Assembly (NCBI GenBank): GCA_030704615.1
Contig: CM060732.1
Coordinates: 54,560,001 to 54,624,000 of the forward strand
Origin: Takakia lepidozioides
Lineage: Eukaryota; Plantae; Bryophyta
Direction: 5' to 3'
Length of the DNA: 64,000 nucleotides
In this document: one piece after another, positions 3 to 28,209 of the stretch
Position numbering within the stretch: position 1 is the stretch's first letter
How the letters are laid out: each line of letters opens with the position of its first letter
Notes under the pieces: model-generated
The model's database searches: none
The model's input: only the letters and a program-made list of their open reading frames with translations
What the model was told of the DNA's origin: nothing
Made by a program: the position numbers and the translations under genes

Positions 3-3000
3 ATGCGGACTATTGTAGACTACATCCTTGCCCCACATTTGAAGCCGAGAATGCCACGATCAAGAAAAGAGGCAAGAGCAGCCTTGGATGCTGTGGGGAT
101 GGGCTATAAGATTTTTCATGCATGTCCATGTGATAAAACCCTGTACTTCGGAGAGGATGCAAAACTCACCAAATGTCCAAAGTGCAACAAAGACCGATAT
201 CGGGATGATGTTCAAGGGAAGAAAGCCCCGCACAAGGTATATCCGCGCCACAATACACTTGTATATTGCATTCTACCTTTTTGCAACTGTTTTACTTAGA
301 GATATGAATGACACTGATTATGATATAGGGCCGACATGGGGATGGTGTAGAAAATGCACTACTTTCCAATCATCCCGCGATTGCAGGCACACTACCAAAG
401 CCCCTCATTGGCACAACTGATGAGATGGCATGCCTCGCATCGGAGCCCCTCCGGGAAATGTGTGCGGGCCACAAGATTCACAAGCATGGAGGCATACTGA
501 AGAGATGTGGCCTTTTATCTTGGAGGACCCACAACATGTCCGCCTCGGCTTCTCCTCGGATGGGCTCAACCCATACTCTGTCCAGTCATGTAGTCATTCC
601 ACTTGGCCGGTGACCATGGTGAATTACAACATCCCTCCGTATCTTTCAATAAAAAAAGGCCATATCATGTTGGCTGCCATTGTACCGGGTGAGTGTTCCC
701 ATTTCATGCTTATTATTTCTTTGGATTTTACATTAATCTTCTTCTCTTTGGCGCAATTCCGATGGAAGATTGATGAGTGACGTAATCATGTAGTAAGATG
801 TGTCATTCATTATGAAGTATAATTAGCATGGTGGAGCATTGAAACAATTAATGGTGTGAATGTCTCATAGGGAAAAAACAAGTGAAAGACATGGACACGT
901 ACTTGCGACCTCTAGTTGATGAACTGAAGGAGCTATGGAGGGGGGTCCCGCATTGGATGCTTCACTTGACCTATGGCCGGACAATCTTTTCAGATGAGAG
1001 ACATCTTGCTTTGGACAATGCATGATTATCCAGGTATATTATATTCCCCATGAGAAATCCGCGTACATTTACCTGTCAAGGGATATTGATGAGGATTGGG
1101 ATTGATTGAAGTAGCGGCGACAGTATTCTGTATCGTAGTGGGGTAGATGCACATGGAAACTTTTTGTCTTTCCTAATGTGGCGGAATGTCTACAAGACTT
1201 ACTGTTTGCTCGGGGTTGAGCACTAAAGGGTACCACGCATGCCTGCAATGTGGCGATGAACTTGATGCACAAAGCTCCAGCAATCTTCGCAAGATGGTGT
1301 ATCCCAACTACCGCAAGTTTCTTCCTATGAGCCATCATTGGAGAAGAAAAGACAAACACTTGTTTGATGACAAAGTGGAGTTACGTCCCCCACTTGTGAC
1401 ACCATCCGGGCACTTTTGGGAAGACCGATGGAAGGAGGCCCATCCGGAGGGGTCCGGTGAAGTGGAGGTGCCCCGGCATGAAGTGGCTTTCAATCTTCTA
1501 CGAGTTGCCATATTGGGCGGTACATATTCCACAAAAATACCATCAATATTGCTATGCATGCATGTGATATTGCATGTTTTGTATGATTTCCATTGTCACT
1601 TTCACGACAAAAATAGACGTGTAAGAATGTGTGGGTGGGGATATGTGTAAGACCTGAAGATTTGTCATCTTCTAGATCCCATGCATATTGAGAAGAATAT
1701 TTGCTCGTCCCTTTTTCGTGTTCTTCATGGCACGCCGGCAAAGAAGGGAGTGGCTGCGAAAGGAGATTCTCTCGGTGTTAGGAAGGAAGAGCAGGGTCGC
1801 ATGCCCCATCTATGGGCCGAAGAAAATGGTGTGGACCCAAAGGGTGTTGTACGGTGGAAGGATAGGCGTGCACCTTGGCAATGGACAAATGAGGAATACA
1901 AGAAAGTGATAGCCACCATAGGAGCTGTCCGAACACCAACTGGTTATGGGTCATCCCTCCGTATGAAGTTCAACGAAGACGGGGTCCATGGTTTGAAGTC
2001 TCATGACTACCACAATCTATTGCAAGACATCTTGCCCATTGCAGTACGTGGGACATTGACTCCCGAGGTTCGCAAGACAGTCTATAGATTGGGAGCATTG
2101 TTCCGGTGGATTTGCTCCAAAGAGCTGGAGGAAGCGGACTTTCCACGCATGAAGAAGGAGGCGGTGGTGGTCATGTGTATATTGGAGATGCACCTTCCTC
2201 CCTCCTTCTTTGACATCCAAGTGCACTTGGTAGTGCACTTAGTGGAAGAGGCTTCGATTGCCGGCCCCCTTCATTCTCGGTGGATGTACTACCTTGAGCG
2301 ATACATGAAGACTTTGAAAGCACATGTAAGACAAATGGCATACCTGGAGGGTAGCATGGCGGAGGGGTATACATTGCAAGAGGCTATGTTCTACTGCATG
2401 GAGTACTTGGCAAGGGTGGATAAGGAAGCCCCTCCGATGTGGAAGGAAGATGAGGATGTACGAACCAAGGACATCGTTTTGCCCAAAAATTCAAAGAGGG
2501 TAAAATTACCCATCATGGTGATTAACCAAGCGCATGAGTTCATACTGAAGAACACCCCATCCATACATGAGTGGGAGGCAAGATACAATAACCTTGTTCA
2601 GCAACGACAGGAGGAGACGGTTGCGTGGAGGCGGAACCATGCAAGGGCTACTACACGCGCTCCGCGAGCAAGGGGCCGGCGTAGGAATGTGCCTTCACAA
2701 GAATTGCCCATGGAATTGCAGCCTCTAAGTTCATTCCGCCATTGGCTTTGGACTGAAGTAGAGGATAGCATTGCGAAAGGTGAGGTGGTTTCAGATTTGG
2801 TGCAAGACATTGCAAGGGGCCCCTCTCAATTTGCGACCTCATACACGGCGGTTTGGGTTCATGGTCTTCATTTCCGCATTCGTGCTTTTGACATGAAGCA
2901 CAAAACAACGTTTGATTCTGGCTTGTGTGCCTCATATTGGCAAGACTCCGTGTGGGGCAGGGGAGATACACGACCTACCATGAGCACACTCAACTACTTT

Positions 3001-3593
3001 GGAGAGCTTGAGAGCATACTCCAACTTCAGTATACAAGGCATCAGCCTCTTATCTTCAAGGCAAGGGGTTCCAGTCTGTGGGGCCATCTGCAACAATAGG
3101 AAGACGAGTGTGGTTTCATGCGCGTCAATACATATAGGCTCGAGTCTACTCATCGTCCCTCCGATGAGCCTTTTTCATGGCCTTCAGACATGGAGCAAGT
3201 TTTCTTCTCCGGATCAGGAAATTGGAAGGTGGTTGTGCATGCTCAGCCAAGATGAAGACGTATCTATCATGGTCGGGGATCTACATGGGGCAAGGCAGAT
3301 GCGGAGGAGGAAGAGACTGGTCATGATGACGGTGATGTTGGCCGAGGTTGGATAGAGGGGGTACAAGAGAATGATGACGCCCCGGACAATGCATCCCGGA
3401 CCCTATACGATGAGGCTCCATCAGATGCAGATGTTGGAGAAGAAGATGAAGATATGGTCATTGAAACCGAGGTGGAAGATGATTCAGATGTGCCTTTTGG
3501 TGACCAGGCCATTTATGACAATGACTCTGATGAGCAAGAAGACTTGCAGCTTGATGAGGACGAAGAAGCTCCGGATGATGATGTTCAAGTTGA
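3..3593 (+). pseudogene. CACTA TnpD/TNP2-type transposase (Transposase_21, DUF4218 and DUF4216-like parts), spliced and frameshifted
   Basis: Motifs HACPCDKTLY..CPKC, RLGFSSDGLNPY..STWPV..NYNIPP, HDYP, GYHACLQC, DPMHIEKN, GLKSHDYH..LPIA and LPPSFFDIQVHLVVHLVEE..GPLHSRWMYYLERYMK, plus an acidic tail. The frame is broken by frameshifts and short GT-AG introns. Confidence 0.88.
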
Positions 3594-5404: not shown

Positions 5405-6075
5405 ACATTTCGCTAACAATGAGAGTGATGTGTACAAATTTCCTTCGAAGGAAGATACGAGCTGTTACCACCACATTCGGTTGGATGTTGTCCGTGCACT
5501 TACTTCCTCCTCCCTAGTGTCTGCCGTGCATGTACAATTTAGAGCCACGAGGGCAGAGGCAGATAACGTAAAAGCGGAGGTGCATGAGTTGTGCAGAGTT
5601 GTTGCAGAAATGCTTCGCGTGAACACTTTTCTAAGGGATCTTCATTTGGAGGGTGTAAACCTGAACATGAAGTCAGCTGAGCTAGTGGCTGACGCGTTGC
5701 GTCAAAATTGTACTCTGCACTCTCTCGGTCTGCGTGTCAGGAATTTGGATGCAGAGAGTGTGCGAGTGTTGGTGGCTCCGCTTGCTACCACGCATGCCTT
5801 GGAATGCAACCGTGCGCTGCAGGAGCTGTACATAGATGCACAAGAGCTCCAACGTGTTTGGTGACGAGGGAGCAAGGCACGTTGCAGCGATGTTGTGCAA
5901 CAATTCTTCATTGTTGTCGCTCGACAAGTTTGTGGTTGGGAGATGACGGCGGAGGGCGCTGCGGAAATTGTGCGGGCTCTGGCCACCAACAACACCCTGC
6001 AAGTGCTAGACCTAGCCTATAACCAAATAGGTGTAGATGGTGTGGAGGCGCTAGCGGCACATCTCAGAAACAATG
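5405..6075 (+). pseudogene. TORNADO1-like Roco pseudogene, segment 1 (RI-like LRRs)
   Basis: LRR motifs MLRVNTFLRDLHL, ALRQNCTLHSLGL and ALATNNTLQVLDLAYNQIGVDGVEALAAHLRNN. The frame is open right up to the CACTA end and continues across the retroelement as NN-ASPTRLDI at 29502. Frameshifts are present. Confidence 0.8.
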
Positions 6076-6604
6076 TGTCGTGCGCATACATATCGCTACA
6101 CAACTACATCGCTGTCCAAACCACACCACACATATATGCACAATAAAGTAGTCTGCCACAATGAGGTAAGAAAGCTAAAAGACACACTCTCAACACAAGA
6201 AATATGAAATCCATCGCTATCACTATTTAAAAATAGAAGTCGAGCCAGGGGCACCCCAAGCTATGGGGACTCCACCCCACAACAACCTACACTCCCATCA
6301 TAAGCACACTCAGATCTAAACGCATGAAGGAGCTCGGTCGCGCAGGCTCAACTTGAGAGAGATGAGCTGCGCGACTGCCGCTCTCGTGAAGATAAGACGG
6401 TTCAGGTGTCAAACTAAACTTGACACCTGACTTAACACTTGACCTAAATCCAAGTGTTAAGTACAAATAACTAGCTTTATTCTAGTCGTTTTCACATTGT
6501 GCTTATTTAACTTGACAGCTGTCGTGCGCATACATATCGCTACACAACTACATCGTTGTCCAAACCACACCACACATATATGCACAATAAAGTAGTCTGC
6601 CACA
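6076..6604 (-). repeat. 3' terminal repeat block: A (6520-6604), gc, B (~6162-6517), A (6076-6160)
   Basis: The two 85-bp A copies differ by 1 nt. B matches 29149-29501 with about 6 substitutions and small indels. Confidence 0.92.
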
Positions 6605-6616
6605 ATCGCCCCCCTA
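6605..6616 (-). promoter_or_regulatory. Polypurine tract of the MTase-Gypsy element
   Basis: The minus strand reads TAGGGGGGCG-AT-TGTGG..., immediately before repeat A. Confidence 0.75.
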
Positions 6617-6862: not shown

Positions 6863-8296
6863 CTATCCAATGCAATGTGGACATAACCAATCCCCATCCG
6901 GAACCATCTCAAGAGGTGGAGTCAAGCATCCCATATGCCAACCTCTAGAGCATTGATCACACACCAGCATGGTGGCTGCCCCTTTAGCATACCCACACAA
7001 CATGCACCTCAAACCTGCAGCCACTGCCAGGTTTGGGTCAATCCTGCCATCGACATTCGGAAGGTGACATGGCGCACAATTACGCACATGGTCCTTCCAA
7101 GTTATGCCATCCCGACCCTCCAAGACCAAGACGCCTGAGGGCAAGACCTCTCGAACCCTCAAAATAACACGTCCTGCAGTCACATCCAGGGTCGTAGGAG
7201 TAGTCTGCTGCAGATAGACATAGTCACCAGGGTTGAATCTCCGAACCCCAGGACGATAGCCCCTACCACGTATGGTAGCATACCTCAACGTATCACGGTG
7301 TTGTGCAATGGCAAGGTTCTCGAAAGCCATGGGCATGACTCTCTTGAACAACTCTGCACGCTGCTCACATGCACGTGCCCACACGTCCGGATCGTCAAGG
7401 TTAAGAACTGTAGCAGCTTCTCTGCGAATGGATGTAGGCAAATCCGGCTCTCGGCCAAAGAGAAGAAAGTATGGTGAGAAGGAGGCAAGTGATGCTTGCT
7501 TGCTAAACCTGTAGCCCATGGCTAACCAGGGTAACTGAAGGTCCCAATCTCCTAGGTGTCCATTCTGCAAGCCATACTTGCGCAAACCCCTCTTTACTGT
7601 CTGAACAACTCTCTCTGCCAAGCCATCGGCCTCAGGATGATCCCGAGAAGTGGTGCGGTGGTCTATCAAGGCCTTGTCACACAAAGCCTGAAACTCCCCA
7701 AGAACTCTCTCCCTTGGTCCGTGAGTACCTCAGCTGAGCACACCGAATCGGCTAAAAACACAATCCAAGAATGCATACTCAGCTCCCTCACTAGCCTTAT
7801 CAGGTAATGGAACCAATTCAATCCACTTGGAGAAGTGCTCCACCATCACCAACATGTACTTGTTGTGGCGCATGGTCAGTGGCAACGGCCCTGCGAAGTC
7901 AAGACTCCACCTGTAGCCCAATCCCATGATCGGAAGAGGGTGCAATTGTGGGTAGGGGCGTTGAATGAAGCACGCACCATGTCACACACCATGCACCTAG
8001 CCACAATTGTTGCACCTCTGTGTGCATACCACGCCACCAATACTGCCCCTGCAGTAGACTATGAGTGCGTCGCACCCCAAAATGCCCCAACTCCTCATGG
8101 GCATGCCGCACTAACCGTGCCCGACTAACCGTGCCCGCTGTGTTGGGTGAGGCACAATCCTCACTCGACCATCCTCCCACACTCGGAGCAGGTGTGTCCC
8201 CTCCCACTTGAACCTCTTGGCTCGTTGTAGGATCCGATCCCTCTCCTTGGCAGTCACAGTGGCTGCAGTGTCTCCAGTGCGGAGGTAGTCCAACAC
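6863..8296 (-). pseudogene. Integrase (HHCC and DDE) with C-terminal PHD finger, frameshifted
   Basis: HAHEELGHFG..YWWRGM, RWSLDFAGP, VLTDQG and DGLAERVVQTVK. The C-terminal CMLC..MLVCDQCSRGWHMGCLTPPLEMVPDGDWLCPHC is a C4HC3 PHD finger. Confidence 0.9.
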
Positions 8297-8845
8297 AACT
8301 GAATCCTCATGTATATCTTTGGCGCCACTTGCTCATTGCTGGCCTCAGGGTCCTCAGACACTTGATCTACAGTCATCCCTGTTGCAGGTCCATCTTGGCC
8401 TTCCGCTGCCAAGATACACAGAAATGCAGATGCATGCCATCCGGGCACCATCTCCTCGTCCATCTCACCATGCCACCGAGCTCCAGTGTCATCCTGCTGG
8501 CTCGTGCATGGATTGCGACTCAACCCATCTACATTGCGATTGACCAAACCCAGTCGATGCACCACCTGAAAGTCATACTCTTGAAGGATGAGTGCCCACC
8601 GTGCAAGCTTCCCCGTAAGCTTGTCTGACTCCATCAACCACTTGAGTGGTTGGTGATCCGTGACAAGGGTGAAGAGATTGCCATATAGATAGCACCTAAA
8701 GTGTGCCATGGCCCACACTGCAGCTAAGCATTCTCCCTCATATGAGCTATACTTAGACTCTGCAGCATTGTTCGAGCGGCTAGAATAAGCCACTACGAAC
8801 TCTCTTCCCTCATCATCCACCTGTGTGAGCACCGCTCCAAGCCCG
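8254..8845 (-). pseudogene. Ty3/Gypsy RNase H domain
   Basis: GLGAVLTQ..VVAYSSRSNNAAESKYSSYEGECLAAVWA..F.LVTDHQPLKWL..GKLARWALILQEYDF..NVDGLSR. Confidence 0.9.
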
Positions 8846-8934
8846 CCTGTACCGTCTCGGTAGGCAGAGAGACCGTCAAGGGAAGTGCACTCCGCACTCT
8901 ACATTGCTCAGCCATAGCCAAGCTGATAATTCAG

Positions 8935-9870
8935 GTCAAGCAATAGAGATCCATTGCTTGCCCCAACACTTGACGACGTGATGCCTCAGAAAGAGAAGGC
9001 ACCGCCGTGGTCCCAGTGGAAAATCCCATAGCCCGCTCTCGCTCATCGGCATTAGGCTCCACTAACTGCTGCAACTGAGCATCCCACAGGAGGCCAGGTC
9101 CACCATCCCGAAAAGCATGGGATCCTGGGAAGCTGAGCAGTGTAGGTAATGCTGTTCGTGGTTGACTCACCCTGTTGACCACTGCCAAAGGCGAACGGTC
9201 ATCGTGTCTCACACGTTGAGACTGCCTCCCTGTGTCCAAAATGCTATCCACTATGAGGTGTGTTGGCCGCTTCACCCCATCAAATGCACGCTTGAGCAGT
9301 GCGGGTGGCATCAAGTTAGTCCACCATAGCCGTGGACGATGAGCCCGTGATCCCACTGCAGCTGCATCTAGCAGCACTGCTAACCCAAGCCACGACGGGA
9401 CTTGATGCACACTGGCCATCACCCTGGCCCGAGAATCGCCCATCAGTGGCACATTCTCCAAGATGTATGCTGGCGATACAGCTTGATGAAGCTGCAAGTG
9501 GCGCAAAATCCGCACCATCTCCCAAAACAGACCCGTCCTCGAGTCTCGCAATCCATTGCCATGCCCGGCTGATGAATGCCCTTGGCAGGGCCAACCTGCC
9601 ACTACCAGATCAATGGAGCCAACCTACTCCCACTCCGGCGCCCCCAGCAACGAAATGTCTGCTGGCAAGGCTTGTTGGTATCCACGAACTGCAGACACTG
9701 GTAACAAAGCAGGGTACTGCTGTACCAACTGAGCAACATGGCACAGTGAGACACGTCGTGTAGTCTTATCCCTCTCCACATACAGGTAACGCCTTACCCG
9801 CACACCTGCCTGTAGCATAGCAGCCAATCCGGTGCTGATCCCGCCAAACAAGTCCAGAAGGCAAATGCCT
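8935..9870 (-). pseudogene. DNMT3-like C5 cytosine methyltransferase domain within Pol (copy 1; in-frame TAG at 9624-9626)
   Basis: Motif I LDLFGGISTG, II YVERD, III ADI, IV VAGWPCQGHS, VI YILENV, VIII AHRPRLWWTN, IX ERERAMGF and X QVLGQAM. Confidence 0.9.
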
Positions 9871-9998
9871 TCATCCGGATACAACCACACAATAGATGTG
9901 GTATCCAATGGTGACAACTGAGGTGGTCTTGGTGCAATACCTGTACTCTCCTCCTCTCCTGATGGTACAAAAGCCTTTACCCAGGCTTGTTGCACCCG

Positions 9999-11368
9999 TC
10001 AATCAGCAACCTGCTGCAAATCCTTGCTCGTACCCCACAATGGAGTGTGAGCAACCATGGCAGGCAACTCCGCCATACCATGCATGTCATCCTGCTCTGC
10101 TGGAGGTGGCACATCCTCTGCATTGGCATTTCCTTCCAGCAACTCTCCAGGCCAACTAACTGCAGCTGTAAAGGCGGCTAGTGTTGGCATCTTGCCCCGT
10201 TGGGCAGCCGCAATATCCCGAATGAATGTCACAGGGAGCTGTCCACGACGACCATCCCCTGACTGCCATCCAGGCCTGTAGAATGCTGACTCCTCCCAAA
10301 AATCCAGGGTGAAGCCCATGGGGTATAACACTGCCCCCCACCACGAGGACATTGTAAGAGACCGCGTCTGTCACAATGGCCTTGGCTCGCATTACTGAGC
10401 CATCGATAAAATGATCCGGCTGTAGTCTAATGGCCAACTGATGCCGTGTCATGCCCCGAGCCTGCTCTGATCCTCCCAGAGAAGTCTGTATCTAGAGAGG
10501 ACAAGGCTCCATATCCGCCTCCATGAGGCCCAAATCTGCAATAGCAGCTCTGCCCAACATCAGTGGCTGAGCTCCCAAGTCCAACAAGATCCGTAGTGGC
10601 CGATACTTCTTGCCAGCCGGTCCACTCAAAGAGAAAATGCCATCCTGGTTGTCTAACAAGACAACTCCAGGTGTCACCATGGCGCGCTCAAAGGCTGGCC
10701 TAGCTGGCAGCTCTGTCAACCTGGCAGCTGCAGCTCGCCATGGCGCAGCCGTGGCAGTCTTGACCCTCAAATCCGAGGATCCCTCTGCCACTACACCTTC
10801 CAGTAACTCCGCAGAAGATGAAGTGACCCCCCACTCTCACAGAGTGTTGCTAGTCTGAACACTGCAGCTGGACTTACCCCGGGCGTCGCAATCATGGTTG
10901 CCGAGAATAGTGGGGATTGACACAAAGAGGTGGCTGCCCCCAACAACACACTGGCTGCACTAGCCTTGGTAGCAGGTGTCAGTGTTGCAAGTGTAGCTCT
11001 CCCCAATGGCATAGAAACCCCGCCTCGGTAACAGTCGGGCGAGAACTAGGTGCCATGGATGGTGTTGACACTGTCTCCGCCAATGTGAATGACTGAGGCA
11101 GCCTCGCCTGACGGCTTGCCTCCCCACATTGTGGATCCAACTCCACCTCTGCACCTCGTGGCTCAGGAACTCGTGCTGCTCCTCGAGTCACGGCTGCAGC
11201 AGACTCCACCTGCTCTAGTGGTAGTGCTGCTCCGCACATGAATCCCATGCCTCCCATATCTCCTCCCTCAGGAACAGGAGGTGGACCATCCCGCCTGGGA
11301 GCCGGTATCGCCTGAGTTGTAGCCATGGCAGCGAGCCTGTGCTCTAGCTGCTGAAGCCGGTTGGCCAT
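9999..11368 (-). pseudogene. Gag-protease linker and aspartic protease (copy 1), frameshifted
   Basis: LLDLGAQPLML here and FLDSGAQPLML in copy 2, followed by YNVLVGG. Collinear with the open frame of copy 2. Confidence 0.8.
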
Positions 11369-11470
11369 GCCTTGGTCAACACCCTGACCTCCACGTCCTT
11401 GGCCATGTTGAGCTTGCCCTTGGCCTGCACCTCGTGCCCGACCACCTCGTCCTCTCTGGGCCGGTCCACC

Positions 11471-12817
11471 TCACCCCCGACCACCATTGTTCCTTTGGAA
11501 CTGGCCTGGGCGCAACTCAGGATGCAAGTCATAACACTGGGCATCTCCATGCCCATATTTGCCACAATGCCCACACTGCAACTGTGCTGGCTGTGTTTGT
11601 GCTGGCCTTTTGCCACTCTCTGGGCAATTTCTCTTGACATGGGGTCCTCCACATGTCCAACATATCACCCCTGGTTGCTGTTGGCCTGCAAAAGATGCCA
11701 CGGGCCTCTGCCCCTGAGGTCCCCTGTAAGCTCCATGGAACTTGGGTTGGGAAACCTTGCCCCCCTGACCACGCTGTTGGGTAGTCCCTTGTGCCTGTGG
11801 GCTGGCAGCTGCGCCTTGTGCAGGCATGTCCTTGCCAAACCCAATGGTAACAACTCGCTCCTCCACCATATTGAGCTCAATCCGCTCAGCCAGCAGAAAC
11901 ACATCTGCTAATGTGGGTTGGGCTGCTTGTAACAGGGTTGCATCCCGCACCCTTCTCTTGAGCTCCTTGTCCAAAATTCCATACCAGAACTGGATTGCCT
12001 GAGCTTCAGTAACCCCTTGGGTCACACTTATCAAGCGCCTCATACGAGTGTAGGCCTCTCGCAAGCTCTCACTGGGTTTGCGCTGGAAGTCTTGCAAACT
12101 TCGCAGCTTCTCTGTCCGTACACCTTGGTAGTTCCTCCGCAACTCCTGAAAGAACTCCACCACCAGGTTGAATCTAGGCACATGTGTTGTAGTCGTGGCA
12201 GTAGAAGTAGTAGAACCATTTGAACTGGTACCACCTGCAGAAGTACCGGCACTACTTGTTCCACTACTAGTGCTGGCAGTGGGAGATATTGGTACTGATG
12301 CAGCTACTAGTCGCGTCATGCCTGGAGTAATGGAGACGTAGTCAGATGACCAATACATCCTCCACTCCTCAATCTCTGCTTCATGTCCTCGCCTGAACTC
12401 GTGGTAATCGTCCATAGGCAGGCCTTCCAAATGCTGGAACAGTCCCTTCCACGCCATGAATAGGGTGAATAGCTGTGGATTGCGCATCTGCTGCAAATCA
12501 CACCTGCTGTCGAACTCCTGGATAAAGTCATCCAACTCGATTGTGCCCATAGCTCCAGAGTACCTACGAGGCCCCTTGGTAGCTCCATACATCTCCTCCA
12601 TGTCGTCCCACAACAATGGCGAATGAAACTGCACACCTGATGATGAAGCCTCCGAGTCTCTGTCTGACTCTACACTAGTTGAGGGTGGAGGTGAAGGTGG
12701 TCTGAAACGAACACCTCGTCTCGTGAACCCACTCTCACTGCTACTGCCTGTAGCCGTACTCCCCTCAAAACCCTTGGGTAACTCCGTGATGACACTCACA
12801 ATGTGCATCTCCCCCAC
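11471..12817 (-). CDS. Gag of the MTase-Gypsy element, with two CCHC zinc knuckles
   Basis: RRYSG..LDDFIQEFD, FQRKPSESLREAYTRM, CWTCGGPHVKRNC and CGHCGKYGHGDAQC. Confidence 0.82.
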   Translation of the reverse strand: MGEMHIVSVITELPKGFEGSTATGSSSESGFTRRGVRFRPPSPPPSTSVESDRDSEASSSGVQFHSPLLWDDMEEMYGATKGPRRYSGAMGTIELDDFIQEFDSRCDLQQMRNPQLFTLFMAWKGLFQHLEGLPMDDYHEFRRGHEAEIEEWRMYWSSDYVSITPGMTRLVAASVPISPTASTSSGTSSAGTSAGGTSSNGSTTSTATTTTHVPRFNLVVEFFQELRRNYQGVRTEKLRSLQDFQRKPSESLREAYTRMRRLISVTQGVTEAQAIQFWYGILDKELKRRVRDATLLQAAQPTLADVFLLAERIELNMVEERVVTIGFGKDMPAQGAAASPQAQGTTQQRGQGGKVSQPKFHGAYRGPQGQRPVASFAGQQQPGVICWTCGGPHVKRNCPESGKRPAQTQPAQLQCGHCGKYGHGDAQCYDLHPELRPGQFQRNNGGRG

Positions 12818-13335
12818 GTGACACTATAAGGCTCTAGTACTAATTCTAATAGTGACACGGGTGGGCACTTGTTGCAGTTTAAGGGTCATATCCCAATGGC
12901 TCAGGGCACTGCACCTGCATCCACCGCAAGAACTCCTATGGTTGGCTGGTCATCAACCCAGCCTCACCATAGAAGAAACACTGGTGGTCTTGCTGGTCGT
13001 CACTCCAGCCTCACCACCGACAGCATACTCTAGGATTGACCGGTGATCAAATCCGGCCTAATCCCTATGAAAGCAAGCGCCCACACAAAACCAACATGGC
13101 GCACAGTCAAGCATGCAGGTGTTGGGAGGGATCCAAACAAGAAATCAAAACATCAACACCCCCCACACCAAAATCCAGCTGCAATGCTGATCCTGCAGAA
13201 TAGCCCTGCCCAAAACCCCGAACTGACTGGCCTCCACCAAGAGAGGCTTTGGCAACTACAAGTACAAGGTAATGAAAATAGTACAAAGATGGAGGGGAAG
13301 AATAGAAGCCCGACCAAGCAAGATCTAATCCTGAT

Positions 13336-14085
13336 CTATTCTATCAACTGCCAGACTTCTCTCAAAGTGCCTCGCTCTGCATGATGGTAAGGTGTAGGAG
13401 GTATATTTATGTCCAGAAACCTGCCACTAACCTTGTCCCAAGCTACAGTAGCTCGCTCTAACCAACCCTCCTCCTCTTTCTGCCAGGTAGAGACAAAGCA
13501 ACACTCTGTTATCTCCCGCTCACTGAACACTAAAGAAAACAAAGGTAGGGTCTGATAGTCTCTCAACTTGAAAGCTTTGAGACGGTTGCGGGTGTCCACA
13601 TTGCGAATGACTGCATCTCCTTCAAACAGAACAAACTTGTCATTGCTAATGAACCCCCGCTCGTGGTTGCCTTGTGCAGAGCGTGTCCGGCTGCAACGCT
13701 GTCTAATTGCACAAACATGTGTAGCTCCTGCTCCTCTACTCCAATACACCACGGCCTTATGGCTGAACACCTTGGTCCCTGGGGCTGTCTTTGGCTGTGT
13801 TCCAAGCCTAGCTTTCACCCACTTTGGTATTTCACCTACAGCTACAGAACTGCTGGCTCCAACAGAGTTCTGACTGTCCAAAGCGCTATTGAGGCCCTCA
13901 ATGCCAACTACAGCAGTTTGTTGTCTACTGCTAATGCCTGACTCCCAGTATGCAATCAACTCGTCCAACTGTTCTCCACTCAAATCAGTCTGAGTTCCTT
14001 GGGAAACATAAATCATGTCCCCTTGTGTGCACACGCTAAGAGAAGAGACCTGCCCTTCAACGACGTCCTCATTTCCCCCAGCCAT
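13336..14085 (-). CDS. Extra ORF upstream of gag (249 aa, unknown function)
   Basis: ATG-initiated open frame. A homologous, frameshifted copy sits at the same position in copy 2 (37017-37767). Confidence 0.55.
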   Translation of the reverse strand: MAGGNEDVVEGQVSSLSVCTQGDMIYVSQGTQTDLSGEQLDELIAYWESGISSRQQTAVVGIEGLNSALDSQNSVGASSSVAVGEIPKWVKARLGTQPKTAPGTKVFSHKAVVYWSRGAGATHVCAIRQRCSRTRSAQGNHERGFISNDKFVLFEGDAVIRNVDTRNRLKAFKLRDYQTLPLFSLVFSEREITECCFVSTWQKEEEGWLERATVAWDKVSGRFLDINIPPTPYHHAERGTLREVWQLIE

Positions 14086-14729
14086 ACAAGGAGTACATCC
14101 CCAGATTTATCTCTCATGTAGACCAGGACAGGTTAGAAACAGAATTGTGATCTTTCATGGCACACTCACACTCTAAAATTCCATAGATTTTTAGCAGAGT
14201 CCCAAAACAAAAACCAATCTAGATAGGTAGATTTCCCCTTTCTGCAGCTATCCCCTCAAAAACTGAGTCAACGGAGCTCATTTGACAAAGATATGACCAA
14301 CCACGCTCTTTAAACATAACACCTTTTTCTTTTCCTTTCCCTTTTAAAAAAAAAATAAGACAGAACAAATGCAAAGGAAACTCCTTTTTCTTTTTTTTTT
14401 CAATACTTTCTTGGTTCTTCCCTGTTATCTACGGGTTCCCGAGGCCTTCCCCTCCAGGTCTATGCAAAATCAAGCTGGTGCCGACAACGCTCAAGTACTG
14501 AGGCACTCAGGATTGAAGACTATCTACTGCCCAACTCTTGCCTGCAGCTCTCACACCAGCAGGGCTTGTACCCGCAGAAAGCGATTCTCCAGCACCATCA
14601 TTCGTACTCCGATCGAAACCAGCTCTCATGCAATCACCAGGTGCTCCAACAGCATGCGCCATGGAACCAGCTTCAAAACGTCCAACCCCAAAAAGGGTCT
14701 CGTTTATCTACAATGAAGGTGCACACCCT

Positions 14730-15650
14730 TGTCGCGCGGCTTTTACTCACCCATCCCTTCGCTATCCGAGGCGGAAACTCCAAGATAGAAGAGTTGGAAA
14801 TCTCTAAGTACTCAGCCCGCGCAGAACAATCAGTCATGACCTACAGCTAGTGTATCATGGGGGTGTTTCCTATTTGTTTCCCTTTCCGCATTCATCTTAG
14901 CTACCTTACCATTGATAATTAAGTATCAGTTTGCTTCCAATCTATCGGTTTCCTTCACTCATCCATTCAATCCACAGCTTCTCTCAGATCTCTCTACACA
15001 GTGTGATTGTATCGTATAAGTATCAGATTATGATTTATCAGGTATCAGGCCGAAGCCATTATGTCTCTAATCTGCTCTCCAATATCACTACAGCTTTGCA
15101 TATAACAAGCATCTACTAATCCTCTTTTCTCCTTCATCGTGCTCTCCATCTCTTGCCTCCGATCTCCGCTCCCCCTGACTCCGAAGTCCTCCTCCGAATA
15201 ATGATCATCCCCTTCATTCCCCGTTTCTCCCTTTATCCTCCTATCCGCGGTTCTAACCGTTTCCCTCTCTAACCGTCGTCTGTGAACTAACATGTTCCCT
15301 TCACAGGTGTTGTTCCCCACAGTCGTTCCCTGTCCTACTCTTCGTTCCCTATTATCGTGACAGCTGTGTCAAGCGGTGACTGGCTGTGTTTGGCTGTGTC
15401 GGGCTGTGACTGGCTGTGTGGGCTGTGTTGCTGTGACGACTGTGACGGCTGTGTGCTGTGTGGGCTACTGTGTTGGCTGTGGGCTGTGACGACTGTGACG
15501 GGCTGTGTCGGCTGTGTGACGACTGTGTAACCCCCCTCTACAGTGCGCTGCTGTCACCCCTAAGGCTCCTGTTGGTCTCAGTCTGTGCAAAAATTAAGGG
15601 TACCCTACAGATCCCGTATAAGTGTCTAAGTCCCCTACAGTCCTCTAACA
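14730..15650 (-). repeat. 3' LTR of the nested Gypsy element
   Basis: Near-identical to 26856-27768. The differences lie mainly in the GGCTGTG repeat tract. Confidence 0.95.
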
Positions 15651-15652
15651 TT

Positions 15653-15666
15653 ACCCCTTCCCCCTC
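15653..15666 (-). promoter_or_regulatory. PPT of the nested Gypsy element
   Basis: The minus strand reads GAGGGGGAAGGGGT next to the 3' LTR. Confidence 0.85.
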
Positions 15667-15699
15667 AAAAAGCCGTGTCCTCACGGTTTACTGTTTTCG

Positions 15700-18600
15700 A
15701 GTAGCAAACCTTTGTGAGTGAGCACCTTTGTTGACGTTGAGAGTTTCGTGGGGGGCTGTGTTGTACGAGGCCCGAGGTCTGTCTCTGGTGATGGAGAGGT
15801 TGATAGTACTGGATAAGTGAGGCCTTCTGGAGGCTGATATCGAGGTAATCTTTCCGGCATAGGAGATCCCTTTGTTTCTTCTCTTCCATCTGAATTGCAT
15901 AGTCTTCTCCCATGTCAAAAGGATTTGTGAAGAAGAAACAGTTTATCAGAATCCTCATCGCCTCTCAGGTGTTTTAATTTTCGAACTTTTTGTGGAAGGA
16001 ATCATCTGGGGCATACAATGCTGTCCTACCATGTCTGGAAGTTTGTATTTTACAACTTGGTGTAACCGCTGAACAGCAAAATTGGTTGTAGGCACTGAGC
16101 TCCTTGTCTGTCCAGAGAGTGAGTGGGTACCAATTAATGGTGCAAGCGTGCAAGTAATTCCATGCCACATGTCCCTTATAGAAAAAATGTCATCAAGTCC
16201 GAATTTTGTGTTGACAAATGGTTGCAGGCGCCTGAAACCATGAACGAATTGAGAATCCTTCTGCATCATAACTTTGGGTCATATAGGTACATATGAGGTG
16301 GCACGAAGTAATACCCAATGATCTCCACTGGAGTAACTTTGAAAGCGTGTTTGCATCTTTTTGTGCTCAATGTGGTAACGTACCAGAACAAGCAGCGTAG
16401 TAGTATAGCCCGCACCCCATGACAATACTTGCTAGCTCCTTGGTCTTGGTATAAATGAGTCCATGTACAACCTGGAAAGCAACCAATTCCCTCAACATGG
16501 TACCTGCCTCGTGCCAGTATTGTGCAAAGTGATGATCTTCAATATGTCGATTGTTGGAAGAACTTTAGTCCTAGTTGCCACTGGCAGCCAATACGCATGA
16601 TTTGGTAGTAATGTGCGAATGACTGCGGAGGACTAAATTCTTTCCAAGCCAATCCAACATGATGGGAATTGGTTGAAGGGCATAAGCATAGCCCTGCTGT
16701 ACTCCCTTGCAGCTGGAGTTTTAGGTGGGTTAAAAGCGGCATTGCCCCATACCTCCGGCTGTGGTGGCTGTGGTGTGGTTGTAGTAACCACAGGTTCAGC
16801 TACTGGTACACTGACCTGTTGTGGTGGTGGTGGTACTGGCTCTGTATCATTGGCATCTCCTGCACCTCCTGTGAAGACTGAAAAGCCAGAGTTCTGGCTT
16901 GCAAATAAGAAGCCATTAGCTGTTCCTGAGGGATATAGACTCTTTGGTCGATGTTTGAAGTGAGGTTTCCACTTGAGTCTGGAGTCCGTCTACATCCTCT
17001 TGTAACTCTGCTATCCTACTATAGACATTGTCTATAGTAGTTGTGGCAATGTTCTGCACCTGCAGTCTGAGCTCATTCATCTCGCTTTGGGTGAGCTTCC
17101 GTGGGCTTTTGCCCTCTACTGGCCCTTGTGCTAACCAGACCTGCATAAGGCTGTTATCCACCAAGCTGCTTGTGGTTCCCCTGAGAGTTTGCTCCTCTCT
17201 TAGCTTGTACAATTCCAACTGCTGTTGTAAAGCCTCCATGCGCTTCGCCTGTGGCTCAACCAATTGCGCATAGGCCAGCAAGTAGATTATTGGCTTCCTT
17301 CGAAGCCTTGTTACTGACCGCGATTCATTTCTATTGGCCACGATGGTTTGTTGCAACTCCACGATGTGTTTCTCTTGATCAGCTTCCCTCTGCCTGTATT
17401 GCTTGAAAGTATCTTCATGGCGACAGATTGTATTCTTCATATCGACAATGAGCTTCATTTGCTCAACATTCTCTTCTTCTGCCTTCGTACATTTTCCGCT
17501 TGACTGTTTATTTCTTTTGTTGATTGGTCAAGCATAGTTGTAAATGTAGCACATTGTATCGCCATCCTGTTATGCACTGTCTGCAACTCCGTATGTAGTG
17601 CATTCAGTTCTTGCAACTTGCTTTCATGCTGCACCTGCATTTGGTATAGCTGTTGCTTATGTGCTTCGTGCAACTGGTCTTGCGCGAGGTTTGCCTCAAT
17701 CAATTGTTGCTTGGCCAACTGCAAAGCCATTTCTGTATTGCCCAAGTCCTGCTTCATCTTGAGAGTGACCTCTTCATCGACCTTGTTTGCACACTCAGTG
17801 GCAAGTCGAGCCTCAAACTCCTTCCTGAGTTCCTCTTTCAAGGCTGTCAATTGGGTAATTGGAACATGGGATTTGACATAAGTCCCAACAAATTAAGTGT
17901 CCTGCCTATGGAACTCATCAGCATTGCCTGTGAGGGTCATCATGGTGAGGTTGCTGCTGTGTTCCTCCCGATCTTCAACAGTATGATGTCTCACTAACCA
18001 TTCAGGCCATTGTCCCACCGGATTTTCTTCCTGAACTACTTCATCTATGACTGGTGTTACAGTGTCATGACCTTCCGCCTGTGGTACCTCCAACACAGGT
18101 GTGTGCATTATATGCACCTCAGGATTTCCCTTGGGCAACTGTTGCACCTCTGGGAATTTCTGTCTCCTTGACCAGACCAGAATATTCATAGAGAAGGTCC
18201 CCTTTCTCTATTTCTGCCACTATCTGTTCTGTAGTTGGAATATCTATCCCTTCACTTTCCAAATCAATTATTTCGGGTTGAGCTGCATGGATAACTTGTG
18301 ACCTTGTGACAAGTCGTTCAAGTGGCTGTGTTGGCTGTGATGCAGAAGTAACTTCCTCCTCCCTCTCTGAAGGTCCTGCTTCCAGTAATAACATTCTTTG
18401 TGCTGCTGTGCCCCTTCCTGGTCATGAGCTTGGGAAACATTATCATGCGGAATCCGTGAAGCCAGTGGATCCGCCACTACAGTCTTTCCCCTTCTCTGCC
18501 TCTTAGTCTCGGGTTGTGCTGCTAGTCCACCCTCACTGTGTGAAGAGCCTTGCTCTTCCATTGCAGTTGTTTCTGGCTCAAACACTCCCATTTCCTTCCT

Positions 18601-19240
18601 TTCTTGTGCATTAAGTATGCCAGAATTAAGGATTATTTGAGCAATGATTGGGCCAGACACTATGATAGGAGACTTTGCGGTAGTACCTTGTAATCTTTTC
18701 ATCTCCTCTACTAGTGCGTTGTACATTATGTCCGCCCATTGTACCTCTTGTCCCTTCAGGCCTTTGAGTATTTCCTCGTGAAGGATCTGCTCAAATATTG
18801 TTGGTTCTGTTTCAGGGCAAACAGAACGTTTCAATACCTGGCCTATCTCTTTTAACCCTGGGTACACAGCTTTGGTACAAGCATAACCCTGAGTTTTAAA
18901 AGAAACTCCCTTCTTGGAATAAGTCCCCTATTTGCAGTCTTGCCCTGTGTTCCCCCACATGCACCTGACCTGCTGGCAATCGAAACAATTGCTGGAGGTA
19001 TAGGGGAGTAATCATTAATTCAACTCCCTTCACCGTTGTTGTTTCCTGTCCTTGGCTCAAAGTTCTGCAAAAATTGTAACATGTACTGTCTATGGTGTAG
19101 TGTCCAATCTAGGCTTTGCAATCCTTCCAATCTCAGCTCCTCCAGTATCTTTATCGCCTGTGGGGTAGCCATCGTTTGTTTCTGCAGAATTGTGGTGCTC
19201 TTCACCCTGATTTCCTCCATTCCTCTCACTCTCTTCATCT
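15700..19240 (-). pseudogene. Large decayed extra ORF downstream of pol (Athila-ORF-like N-terminus, acidic region, coiled coil, Pro-rich region, unknown C-terminal domain)
   Basis: A chain of frameshifted minus-strand ORFs: 19020-19655, 18268-18867, 17893-18394, 17455-17850, 16916-17458 and 15955-16269. The segment at 17000-17850 is a Q/E-rich heptad region. Confidence 0.55.
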
Positions 19241-20229
19241 TAGACTCACAGAACTGCTTTGGCTGTAACAACTGCAGGAATGCCTGTAGTGCACAAAGCA
19301 TAAACGTATGGTTGCCGCAGAAAGCTATGGGTAATCTCTTGTAAGCCTGCGGGGCTTGCAAGCATTGCTCAAGAGAAAAGCTCTGCTCTGTCGTTTCGTG
19401 TCTATGCCACTGCGTAAGTAATATTGCGAGCGTATAGTCTGTTAGTTCCTCCATAGTTTCCAAGTTATAGCATTTATGGCCTGTCCTGTCGAGACGCCCG
19501 TTACTCAGAACGACGCCGCCTCTTGCGCTCAATTTTCCTCCATTTTCTTGATCATTTCTCTGGTTTTCTATTGGCTGTATCCGCTGTGACTGGATTTTAA
19601 CTTTTATCTTCTTTAGTGGACTTTCCCTGTTGGATAGTCCACTAGGATCACACATGCGACATGAATTCAGCTTTTCTGTACTTGCCGTTCGTTCGTTTCC
19701 CTTTTTCCGTATTCATTAATGGGCCCGCCTTTCATCCCATTTGACGGCCGTTCTTGTCCTCTTTTTTTTTGACACCTGTCCTTGCACTTCATTCTCTGCT
19801 GTGTGTCGCACCCTGACCTCCACGTGTCTATTTTTAAAGTAATTTCCGTTTCCTCTTCCGTCATCCATTTTCCTGAAGTTATTATGTGTCCACTTGTCAC
19901 TGATTCTATGGATGGTGTAACTTTAGTAGGCTGTGTTGAGCTGTGACAGGCTGTGTCATACTGTGTTACCCTGTGATAGGCTGTGATGCACTGTGGTAAG
20001 CTGTGATAGGCTGTGACACGCTGTGGTATGTTGTTATAGGCTGTGTTGCGCCTTGCTGGGGCTGTGTGTTGGCTGTGTGTGTTGTCACGTCGTGACGGCT
20101 GTGGTTGGCTGTGTCACGTCTGTTTTGCCCACCCTGGTCGTATATGCTGGGCCTAGCAACAAGTGTTCCATACTCCGTTCGTAACACTGGTGCAGCCCGT
20201 GACTGTTCTTGCGGTTCTATATGCAAATC

Positions 20230-23200
20230 ATGCTGCAGGGGTTTGTCATGGATACCACTGTACCCTTCAACTTATTTGCATTGACTCTTCCCAGCATTTC
20301 TTTGTTAATGGTTTGTAACATGGCGTGTTGTTATCATACATCTTTTGTATGACATAAGGTCCTTTCCACGGTGATTTAAGCTTAGAAGCTTGAATCTTTC
20401 CTTTCTTCTGCAACCATAGAACCAAATCCCCCGTCTTAAAAGTCTTTAATTGCCTTCATCAAACTGTTCCTTTCGCTTCATCTGAATTCTGGTCATATTA
20501 TCAGCTGCATCAGCACGTACTTCTTCCACATGGTATAATTCATGTTTCCTGACCTTGATGGAGTCTTGCAATTCCATTCTTTTTCCCCACTCCGTTCTCA
20601 TGGTAGGTAACAGGAATTCCACTGGAAGTAAGGCTTCCATACCATAAACTAATTGGAATGGTGTATACTTAGTGGTGACTTTATATGAAGTCCTGTATGA
20701 CCACAAAGCTGTCAGCAGCTTTGTATCCCAATCCGTTCTGTTTGCATTGACTATCTTAGCCAAGATAGTACATAGTATTTTGTTGGTAGCCTCTGCCTGC
20801 CCATTACCCTGTGGGTAATATGTTGTACTCTTTCTATGCACAATCATAAACTCTTTAGTCAACAACTCAATGGTCTCATTCATGAAGTGACTTCCTTGAT
20901 CACTGATAAATTCTAAGGGACATCCAAATCGTGTAAGTATGTTCTCGTACAGGAACCTTGCTGTGGACTTGGCTGTGTTGTCCCTCAAAGCTTTAGCTTC
21001 CACCCACTTTGTAGTATAATCAGTGGCTGTAATTATGTACCTGTTTCGTGTATTCTTGGATGGTGGATTAATTGGTCCAACAAAGTCTAGTCCCCATTTC
21101 TGAAATGGTTCCGTAGGCATTGTAGGATGCAAGGCCATTCTTCCAGATCTCTGCAAAGGTCCTAGCCTCTGACATTCATCACACTTCTGACAATACTCAT
21201 GTACATCTTTGAACAAAGTAGGCCACCAGTATCCTGCGAGTAGTATCTTTCTACTGGTAGTCTCTTCTCCAAAATGACCTCCAGCCACTCCTTTATGAAC
21301 TTCCTCCAAGACTTTATTTACTTCATGGTGGTACAAGCATCGTTTTAGTACTCCATCAGGTCCTAACTTATACATTCTGCTTCCTACCATAGTATAAGGT
21401 AAAGCTTTGATAGCAATTCTCTTCCTCTGCTCCTTACCATAACTAGGTGGGCACTGACCATGAGCAAGGTAGTATCTGATTGGCCACTGCCAATCTAACC
21501 ATTCATCTGCACTTCCTTGCACCTCCATTACAAATAAACTCGCATCAGGTAACTGATCGTCCACTCCTGTGGCGGCCTCTCCTGTTGTTAGTCGTGACAA
21601 ATGATCTGCCACAAGATGCAAACGGCCAGGCTTGTAAATAACCTCGAACTCAAACTCATGCAAGATTATTAACCACCTCGCTATCCTTCCACTTATCAAA
21701 GGTTTGTTCACCAGATATATCAGAGCCTGGTGATCCACATAAAACATAAACTTTCTTCCCAATAGGTAATGCCTGAATTTCTTGACTGCATAAATCATTG
21801 CCAATGCTTCTCTTTCCGTTGTACTATAGTTCCTCTCAGCACTGTTCATCAACGGCTAGCATAGTACACAGGTGAATCTATATTCCCTGTAACATTCTGG
21901 GCTAACACCGCACCCAACGCTTCTCCTGATGCATCGCAGTGAACATGAAATACTACATGCCAGTGAGGGTTAATCAGCACAGGTGTAGTTGTTACTGACA
22001 GTGTAAGTTCCTCAAACGCCTGTTGACATTCAGCTGTCCAGGCAAACACTGCATCTTTCTTCAGAAGCTTGCTCAATGGTGCTGCTATTTGTGCATACCT
22101 TTTGACAAATCTTCTGTAATAACTGGTTTGCCCAAGGAATCTCCTTAAACTCTTAACATTCACTGGTGGTGGAGAGACTTTAATGGACTCTGTCTTCCTG
22201 GGATCCACAAGAAGTCCCTTCTTACACACAATGTGTCCCAGAAGCACCCCTGAGTTCACACAGAAAGTACACTTCTCTGGATTCAAGCCCAGACCTCTCA
22301 TCCTGCATCTGGCCAGGCATAACTCCAATTTATGCAAGTGCTCATTCTTAGAGCTGTACACACTGAAATCATCCAAAAACACCTGCATGAAATCATCCAG
22401 ATACTCATGAAAAGATTCACTTATCACTCTCTGAAAGGTCGCTGGTGCATTACAAAGTCCAAAGGGCATGACTTTGTATGCATAAGCCCCCCAGTCTGTG
22501 ATGAAAGCTGTTTTCCCTTGGTCTTCTTCTGCCACTTGCACTTGATTATAACCACTGAAGCCATCCATGAATGAGTACATCTCATGGCCTGCCACAGTGT
22601 CTAATACTGCTTCTGTGAATGGCAAAGGGAAAGGATCTTTCTTCGTACAAGCATTCAGCTTCTTATAGTTCACACATACTCTTAGTTTGCCATTCTTCTT
22701 TGGAACTATAACAATGGGTGACAACCAAGTTGTATACTCTATTGGGTATATAAACTTAGCCTCAGCCAACTTCTTTATCTCTTCTCCAACCTTCTGTGCG
22801 TAGTTGGGATTCATTCTATACCTCGCCTGCTTGATTGGTACTGACCCTGGTTCCAGTTCAATCTTATGCTGACAGACTTCAGGTGGTATCCCTTTTAGAT
22901 CCTCATAGCTCCAAGCAAATACATCTCTGTATTTGATGAACAAGCTTTTAGCTTCTTCGAAGAATTCCGGCTCCAAATCAGCTCCTACTTTCACCATTCT
23001 CGGTTCCTCCTGAGTTCCCACATTTACTTCTCTCACCTGCTCATCAGCTGTGATTGTCCAACCAGTCACCACTTCATCCTTTAAGCTCACAGTGGCTGGT
23101 TCTTCTAGGATTTCTATCTCTCCTTTTCTTCATAGAAATGTGGTGGGTAACTGCTGGTTTCCTCTTCAATTGGTGTTGCGACACTACACCACAGCAGATA

Positions 23201-26200: not shown

Positions 26201-26246
26201 TTTTTGATGAATATCTCTGTCGTCTAGCTTCTCTTTCATCACTCAT
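20230..26246 (-). pseudogene. Gag-Pol of the nested Gypsy element, with stops and frameshifts
   Basis: Gag PIYSGKGDPDVH..FPCSL..ASEWY with three CCHC knuckles, PR VLIDGGSGVN, RT MDGFSGYNQ..MPFGLCNAPATFQR..VFLDDF, RH DASG..EREALA, and IN GGHFG..KWGLDFVGP..SDQGSHF..NGQAE. Confidence 0.93.
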
Positions 26247-26835
26247 GTCCCATGTCTTTCATTTCTTTTAATGTGGCAATAACCAAAACTCTCTTCTGTA
26301 ATATCTCTCGTATATGCCTGGGTTTCTTTCAAGCTTCAATGCACCCTTGGCTATACTTGAAGTCTCCGTTACCATATAACCATATGGCAAACAAGTCTGA
26401 AAAGCTGTTCTTGGTGTGAGTTTGATCCACAAAATATCCTTTGGAATCCAATTCTTTACCAGTACAAGCTCTTCATGCATATGAGTATAAACATTCACCT
26501 TTCTTTCTTCCCAGCCTTCAAACTCTACTCGTTTAATGGATAGCAACGCTATCACATAAACCAATGTTGGTAACCAACGTGCTCTTCCTCTACAGGCTAC
26601 CTGATAAATCTTTATCACTCCTTTCTCCAGACCCCATTCTGGATCAGCATCATGCACTCGTTTAAGAATATTTTCTTTACATCCGTCTGGCAATTCCAAG
26701 AACCTTTGAAAGAATTGTTTGGACAATCTTTCTTCCTTCGTTCCACAGGGAATTTGATTCACTTCAAATTCTTTAATGGTCCAACCACCATGATCCCACC
26801 AGATGCCTGTCACATCTGGTTGTTCATGTCCCAGG

Positions 26836-26853
26836 TCCCCAGTATGGTCGCCA
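26836..26853 (-). promoter_or_regulatory. tRNA primer-binding site of the nested element (possibly tRNA-Arg)
   Basis: The minus strand reads TGGCGACCATACTGGGGA, 2 nt after the 5' LTR. The tRNA identity is an inference. Confidence 0.8.
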
Positions 26854-26855
26854 AA

Positions 26856-27768
26856 TGTCGCGCGGCTTTTACTCACCCATCCCTTCGCTATCCGAGGCGG
26901 AAACTCCAAGATAGAAGAGTTGGAAATCTCTAAGTACTCAGCCCGCGCAGAACAATCAGTCATGACCTACAGCTAGTGTATCATGGGGGTGTTTCCTATT
27001 TGTTTCCCTTTCCGCATTCATCTTAGCTACCTTACCATTGATAATTAAGTATTAGTTTGCTTCTTCAATCTATCGGTTTCCTTCACTCATCCATTCAATC
27101 CACAGCTTCTCTCAGATCTCTCTACACAGTGTGATTGTATCTTATAAGTATCAGATTATGATTTATCAGGTATCAGGCCGAAGCCATTATGTCTCTAATC
27201 TGCTCTCCAATATCACTACAGCTTTGCATATAACAAGCATCTACTAATCCTCTTTTCTCCTTCATCGTGCTCTCCATCTCTTGCCTCAGATCTCCGCTCC
27301 AGCCTGACTCCGAAGTCCTCCTCCGAATAATGATCATCCCCCTTCATTCCCCGTTTCTCCCTTTATCCTCCTATCCGCGGTTCTAACCGTTTCCCTCTCT
27401 AACCGTCGTCTGTGAACTAACATGTTCCCTTCACAGGTGTTGTTCCCCACAGTCGTTCCCTGTCCTACTCTTCGTTCCCTATTATCGTGACAGCTGTGTC
27501 AAGCGGTGACTGGCTGTGTGGGCTGTGTCTGCTGTGACGACTGTGACGGGCTGTGTTGGCTGTGTGGGCTGTGTCGGCTGTGTGGGCTGTGTTGGCTGTG
27601 TGGGCTGTGACGACTGTGACGGGCTGTGTCGGCTGTGACGACTGTGTAACCCCCCTCTACAGTGCGCTGCTGTCACCCCTAAGGCTCCTGTTGGTCTCAG
27701 TCTGTGCAAAATTAAGGGTACCCTACAGATCCCGTATAAGTGTCTAAGTCCCCTACAGTCCTCTAACA
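26856..27768 (-). repeat. 5' LTR of the nested Gypsy element
   Basis: Direct repeat of 14730-15650, followed by the TSD ACCCT. Confidence 0.95.
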
Positions 27769-28209
27769 ACCCTTTTGCAACCCTCAACGCAGCAGTGACC
27801 TGCTCCCTTCCACTGGCCATCAGTATTTTTCTCACCTCTGCAGTGACATCCACCTGCCAGTTGCATCATGAATCCAGAGCTTATCCTCGTCTCTGTTTTC
27901 GGTTTTTGGATTTCTGCCTACAATCCCATAGGCAATAGAATGTTGAAACACTTCGGGCGACCATAGATCTACCCATGGAGCAGAAGGCGTGCTGCTTATA
28001 TCTATAAGCTGCGAGCTTGGAGTGGTCTCAGAAAACCAACAAAATGCGGCTCAGCAGCCAGCCTCCTCAGAACAAGCCAACCCTGCCAAGTAGCTTCAAT
28101 GCACTAGGAGAAACCTTAGAACACGGTGTTTTCATGCCCTACTTAGGAGGAACAAAACAAACCTACAAATCCGGCAGTAAGCGCCACTGTTGTAGCGCGG
28201 ACAAACTCC

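Follow-up and report, generated by a model that had tools for sequence, protein, structure and literature searches.

In a Gypsy clade found in mosses, liverworts and green algae, inserted copies have as their termini the two halves of a palindrome that lies within the LTR, and we consider the probable cause to be that the cDNA circularizes and integrase then cuts this palindrome. The starting point was an element in the window, the whole stretch of 64,000 nucleotides of Takakia lepidozioides DNA that was analyzed, where the repeat is split into two blocks, A and B, which stand as B at the 5' end and as A-gc-B-A at the 3' end. The split-repeat layout is family-wide. To judge by the sequences compared, the clade spans mosses, liverworts and green algae, and the conserved 10-base palindrome appears to mark its insertion ends. 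A broader reading, on which we lean only slightly to the positive side, is that in this old clade (chlorophytes to bryophytes) the att sites moved to a palindrome in U3, integration came to require circular cDNA, and the layout converged on that of tyrosine recombinase (YR) elements.

The outer element lies on the minus strand (29501-6076) in the order B-internal-PPT-A-gc-B-A and is flanked by a 4-bp target site duplication (TSD). In full, B1, the internal region, the polypurine tract (PPT), AT, A1, gc, B2, AT and A2 stand between two copies of AATG (left 6072-6075, right 29502-29505), and the element measures 10,382 bp once a nested Gypsy (14730-27768) is subtracted. B1 (29149-29501) forms the 5' end, TGTC..., and its host junction is present in a contig. 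At the other side the PPT (6607-6616; the same G tract is found in relatives) is followed by an AT dinucleotide (6605-6606), the 85-bp A1 (6520-6604), the gc spacer (6518-6519), B2 (6163-6517; the rest of U3, R and U5), the B2/A2 joint with its AT (6161-6162) and finally A2 (6076-6160), the terminal copy of the U3-proximal repeat A, which ends the element in ...GACA and whose host junction is also seen in contigs. Self-BLAST and the sequence itself agree with an earlier note on this DNA in the placement of all these parts. The A copies (6076-6162 and 6520-6606) are 98.9% identical, A1 and A2 differing at 1 of 87 positions, and the B copies (6167-6517 and 29152-29501) are 98.0% identical, with 8 mismatches over 353 positions between B1 and B2. 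At the A1/B2 boundary stands the perfect palindrome GACAGCTGTC (6514-6523), which occurs once in the window and which, from its conservation in relatives, would be an intact fused att site (GACA-GC-TGTC). Just as the note had read it, the element termini, TGTC at the start and GACA at the end, are the halves of this palindrome without the central gc. The 4-bp duplication and the restored host frame also hold: with the element and one TSD excised, an open frame runs through the site, and its left piece matches LRR_6 (E 3.6e-8). The claim that the inner joint, where the cDNA ends would have been joined, retains the AT that lies between PPT and A stands in part. The dinucleotide is present at 6161-6162, but B2 ends in CTTACCTCA where B1 ends in CTTATCA and is two bases longer near its end, which makes the retained AT ambiguous in the window copy, as its A is shared with the terminal CA of B and may be the last A of B. 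At position 6165 the majority of the contig depth is without the two extra letters (835/1523 in run X1).

The window element is a dead, RT-deleted Gypsy copy with a DNA methyltransferase, a DDE integrase and a PHD finger. On the minus strand it carries a broken gag and protease region (10246-12823; tblastn to ORF1 of the relative L081, and ORFs), a C5 cytosine methyltransferase (C5-DNMT) domain with one in-frame stop (8931-9998; PF00145, E 9e-13, and homologues), an RNase H remnant with the RT deleted upstream (8377-8844; Pfam, tblastn) and a frameshifted H2C2/rve integrase with its D, D and E motifs present and a C-terminal PHD finger (6863-8306; Pfam, tblastn, motifs). By tblastn, the intact Pol of L081 has no match in the window element over residues 1-388. 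Since the RT is lost, this copy cannot replicate alone, and either it must have been mobilized with RT supplied in trans or the deletion came later. The relative L081 (3-6635) is intact, its two ORFs, gag-PR-DNMT and RT-RH-IN-PHD, being separated by a stop, and would be a good source of active integrase; another relative, L082, has A1 and A2 copies that are 100% identical (2311-2884). Both were found in a bacterial genome bin and are likely plant contamination. The Gypsy order PR-RT-RH-IN with a DDE integrase is seen in the window remnants, apart from the deleted RT, and in L081, and the PPT, primer-binding site (PBS), TG...CA ends and 4-6-bp TSD of LTR elements are all present. Named relatives come from Marchantia, Calypogeia, Sphagnum, Klebsormidium and volvocine algae; two scans of viral contigs found none.

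Several further features of the window were recorded. The nested 13-kb element is an ordinary minus-strand Gypsy, separate from the outer one, with ~0.92-kb LTRs rich in short CACAGCC-type repeats and a 5-bp TSD, ACCCT (self-BLAST, Pfam). Upstream of gag, a 256-aa ORF without Pfam match (13336-14106, also 37201-37839) is shared by the two copies that the family has in the window; the second of them, at about 32190-37917, has lost both ends, is 94-96% identical and keeps the start of the RT. The 5' leader of the outer element holds two intronless host gene fragments (28132-28966), one of RPL21 on the element's own minus strand (Pfam E 2.3e-44) and one with ARM repeats on the opposite, plus strand (Atlas 0.92), the latter presumably resembling CSI1; together they suggest mRNA capture. 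Fragments of a CACTA-type transposase (Transposase_21, DUF4218) lie at 1177-3099, and a PPR gene cluster at 47880-58668 comprises one 929-aa PPR-DYW ORF along with several copies that are broken or inverted. The PPR-DYW gene marks the host as a land plant, which to judge by the nearest matches is likely a bryophyte.

With an alignment of the window integrase-PHD and 27 relatives as query, we fetched the best 80 of 435 metagenome loci together with 9 genome-bin loci, and 87 of these 89 were analyzed; L088 and L089 were excluded as weak matches. For 58 of the 87 analyzed loci we could tell where A ends, the other 29 being too short or damaged or lone families that were examined apart. Repeat samplings of one insertion were merged (L016 with L017, L069 with L045), and L020 and L061 were classed as A-B-A. 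Among the resulting 44 independent 3' ends, which come from few hosts and represent independent insertions, not independent species, 40 stop at the terminal CA of A in the palindrome half GACA: PPT-A is followed by host DNA in 23 and PPT-A-nn-B-A is found in 17. Two others (L005, L081) read A-gc-B and then their own PBS and are collapsed assemblies or circles, one (L010) is cut by the contig end, and one (L049/L051) reads A-B and then unrelated DNA. Eleven independent copies have both ends (window, L003, L021, L031, L045, L055, L059, L064, L072, L077 and L079). All 11 start at the TGTC of B with host DNA upstream, and A is absent within 1.2-2.8 kb upstream of the B start in ten full-length loci. 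Six are B-internal-A-gc-B-A and five B-internal-A (one damaged), whereas the mirror layout B-A-gc-B-internal-A is not found among them (0 vs 6). The 4-bp TSD is perfect in nine, matches at three of four positions in L031 and is unscorable in L079; ends have decayed to AACA in L003, L064 and L067, and their TSDs and that of L069 were read from the junction sequences. Independent insertions thus share breakpoints and 4-bp TSDs, as the earlier note proposed to check, and the ordinary A+B LTRs at both ends that it named as counterevidence, that is, the Gypsy norm of two full terminal LTRs bounded by PPT and PBS, were seen in 0 of the 11 full-length copies. B-internal-A is a second layout, as common as the one ending in A-B-A, and by distance A-only copies are not older than A-B-A copies in what is a weak test (Mann-Whitney p 0.68 and 0.46).

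The palindrome itself is conserved. It is exact in seven of eight LTR families and degenerate in one, and the B regions of these families have no pairwise blastn match to each other. It sits 52-180 nt after the PPT, is extended to 16-20 bp in three families and has a background expectation of 0.012 per 250 bp; the bases directly after the PPT show no common motif across the eight families. L083 also has the palindrome, and none was seen downstream in L068, L078, L080 and L087. The spacer among 23 clusters is GC in 7, AC in 7, GT in 4, AT in 3 and AGC in 2, which amounts to GC and products of transitions from it. In a Chlamydomonas repeat library (PMC9940879), a G tract is close by in 9 of the 11 occurrences among the matches listed. 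Conservation of this kind supports the internal fused att site well.

Where the LTR should begin and end follows from the positions of PPT and PBS. The 15 bases directly after B1 (29135-29149, minus strand) are a perfect complement of 29336-29350 inside B1 on the same strand, the predicted 5' end of the transcript and self-primer. Of 13 loci examined, 9 have such a match, 11-16 nt long, where controls reach at most 7-10 nt; it comprises four different PBS/self-primer sequence pairs and in most relatives stands ~30 nt after a TATA box. This looks like Tf1-like self-priming from a predicted transcript start. The placement of the PBS puts the end of U5 at the end of B and, with the PPT before A, the reverse-transcribed LTR should be A-gc-B, in agreement with the earlier note.

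We propose the following scheme. RNA is predicted to start in B1 and to prime itself as in Tf1, and reverse transcription would, from the PPT and PBS positions, give A-gc-B at both ends of the cDNA. These ends would no longer be integrase substrates; they would instead be joined into a 2-LTR circle with a variable B/A joint, or a 1-LTR circle may form. Integrase would then nick after each CA of GACA-GC-TGTC, which would leave the usual 2-nt 5' overhangs, and insert the molecule with a 4-bp stagger. DDE integrase nicking after each CA is established chemistry. The products, B-internal-A-gc-B-A and B-internal-A, are those seen in the genomes, and from the TGTC and GACA ends, the lost central GC and the 4-bp TSD we infer that a DDE integrase cuts the palindrome. 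A linear A-gc-B-int-A-gc-B cut at its palindromes gives B-int-A and never B-int-A-B-A, so the right end must first join the left end. The source of A-only copies may be a 1-LTR circle, a linear cDNA cut at both palindromes or a later recombination of A1 with A2. A symmetric 2-LTR circle has two palindromes and the mirror product is therefore expected to be equally frequent; its absence is unexplained by a plain 2-LTR circle. The earlier note's interpretation of circularized cDNA and an internal att-like site is supported up to the missing mirror product, the circle and its cleavage by integrase being what we infer for the window clade from the ends and joints of inserted copies.

In this scheme A2 and the B/A joint fall outside the RNA that is copied, and each cycle would make them anew. 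Among 14 joints of one family, 5 are blunt and retain the AT pair of either end, 6 share an AT overlap, 1 is shortened by one nucleotide and 2 carry more extensive deletions. Within each of the close pairs L023/L026 and L021/L048 the two joints differ. In 13 elements the distance between an element's own A1 and A2 is 0.092, compared with 0.130-0.132 for A2-A2, A1-A1 and cross pairs, and within an element the A pair and the B pair have diverged to a similar extent. On these comparisons A2 appears to form no separate lineage and the joint looks remade in each cycle; against this, for 4 of the 13 A2 copies their own A1 ranks just 6th-15th of 25. The heterogeneity of the joints also fits the regeneration that the earlier note had suggested. 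Blunt and AT-overlap joints are one AT unit apart and could interconvert by slippage after insertion.

The joint could also be the work of the RT. Here the internal att site would be the same, the plus strand would jump from the right end to the left end and recopy A, by a clamp or by rolling-circle run-on, and integrase would cut branched or concatemeric cDNA without a host-ligated circle. Such a jump would favor the 5' palindrome and account for the missing mirror products (0 vs 6), and the 2-nt overlap of 6/14 joints is as in RT clamping. However, 5/14 joints are blunt and 2/14 carry larger deletions, one of them at a 4-nt microhomology. Blunt joints and microhomology deletions are typical of host end-joining, and we regard the RT jump as rather unlikely. 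Alternatively, joint and A2 would be inherited by way of an RNA that continues past B2 into A2 and of additional template switches like those proposed for PAT/Ngaro elements, so that the layout is copied and not remade. The layout is formally that of PAT, Ngaro and VIPER (PMC4157794, PMC6681497), and two joint classes cover 11/14 joints. Still, the differing joints of close relatives, A2 copies without a lineage of their own and the existence of A-only copies with perfect TSDs make inheritance through such RNA improbable. Split direct repeats are a hallmark of YR elements, and a tyrosine recombinase, encoded by the element or borrowed from a DIRS-type element, might integrate the circle; we consider this very improbable, as the YR domain is absent from the window ORFs (Pfam) and from intact L081 (16/16 ORFs of at least 100 aa), and DDE signatures are seen in the 4-bp TSDs, whose sequences are unrelated, in the TG...CA ends and in the loss of the central dinucleotide.

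The window locus itself is supported by independent contigs. Single Logan contigs without differences cover the left host junction (5800-6101) in 3/4 runs and reach 26 letters into the element, which is below the 31-letter bridging threshold; a single contig of run X1, also without differences, covers the right one (29461-29640) with 41 letters inside the element. Summed contig depth drops to the single-locus level at both element ends. The family is very high-copy in the source organism, where its copies were viewed through Logan contigs alone, which cannot count layouts, and in run X1 there are 15 contigs at whose ends this same terminal motif leads into mixed sequence. The window copy is internally rearranged (RT deleted, a nested element, captured genes) and no contig among those listed spans the whole A-B-A stretch, but with both host junctions covered by independent contigs, A-gc-B-A at 17 independent 3' ends in other genomes and the same layout in published consensus sequences, a one-off rearrangement or assembly artifact, the latter raised by the earlier note, has next to no probability and is refuted as a reading of the family property.

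The prevailing view treats LTR circles as dead ends, and for HIV-1 and foamy virus the cutting of circle junctions by integrase is a contested side route. If our reading is true, LTR circles would be true precursors of integration in a DDE-integrase lineage, which would explain the DIRS-like layout of KnitGypsy-Dnmt3 of Klebsormidium nitens and would show how split direct repeats can come about in elements that have no tyrosine recombinase. A clade in which nearly all scored insertions lie at the internal palindrome, with relatives in Chlamydomonas and Marchantia, would offer a clean test system for circle-derived integration. LTR finders that require two terminal LTRs would miss this high-copy family. 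The paper on REM1 reportedly describes a PHD-bearing Chlamydomonas Gypsy of unusual structure and may bear on novelty. In the literature searched, no published mechanism was found for the layout, the internal palindrome or circle-derived integration in this clade.

PAT, TOC, Ngaro and VIPER presumably integrate from a circle. They have the split direct repeats of the window element, in the order A1-coding-B1-A2-B2, and a tyrosine recombinase (PMC4157794, PMC6681497), whereas the window element has a DDE integrase, no YR, 4-bp TSDs and the PPT and PBS of an LTR element. The closest described case is KnitGypsy-Dnmt3, for which the legend of Fig. 4c gives DIRS-type repeats A-coding-B-A-B with Gypsy domains (de Mendoza et al. 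2018, PMC5890265); as far as that legend goes, both elements combine a Gypsy Pol and a C5-DNMT with DIRS-like repeats. A K. nitens DNMT-RT-RH-IN protein (P0187) matches the DNMT half of the window element at 47% over 98%, and another (P0008) its integrase-PHD at 54%. The window element appears to be related to KnitGypsy-Dnmt3. Three of the supplements of PMC5890265 contain no locus ids by which P0187 could be tied to that element, and the parts of the main text covered do not give termini, TSD, palindrome, priming or integration mechanism ('target site' has 0 occurrences). In the Chlamydomonas library of PMC9940879, the Gypsy-14a_cRei consensus starts with TGTC, carries PPT-A-gc-B-A and ends with GACA; Gypsy-14a/14b and Gypsy-22_cRei are sequence entries whose layout is undiscussed in the accompanying text. 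As far as these sources show, the layout is already on record, in a figure legend and a consensus sequence, yet without explanation. Gypsy-7a_cRei, an active PHD-bearing family of the same library, has other ends and a tRNA-type PBS in its entry and is not of the same kind. Troyka, as described in PMC12440569, has CG...CG ends and a 3-bp TSD and is restricted to animals; the window element, with TG...CA and 4 bp, is unrelated to it. In Tf1/Sushi and Tcn1 the PBS complements the predicted transcript start and not a tRNA, as in the window element, but those elements have ordinary terminal LTRs. The survey that covers them (Neumann et al. 2019, PMC6317226) took in elements by the presence of an LTR at either end and would therefore miss split-repeat elements; 'PHD' and 'methyltransferase' have 0 occurrences in the text of PMC6317226 that was covered. 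Finally, the integrases of PFV and HIV-1 cut palindromic LTR-LTR junctions, and circles can be linearized and integrated, in the portions of PMC1180852, PMC1905944 and PMC4372172 consulted. These viruses share with the window clade a DDE integrase and a palindrome of two fused att ends, which in the clade would likewise be cut. In PFV and HIV-1, as these sources describe it, the palindrome arises where U5 is joined to U3, its use is a side route and the provirus is normal, whereas in the window clade the palindrome is encoded in the genome inside U3 and is apparently the sole end used.
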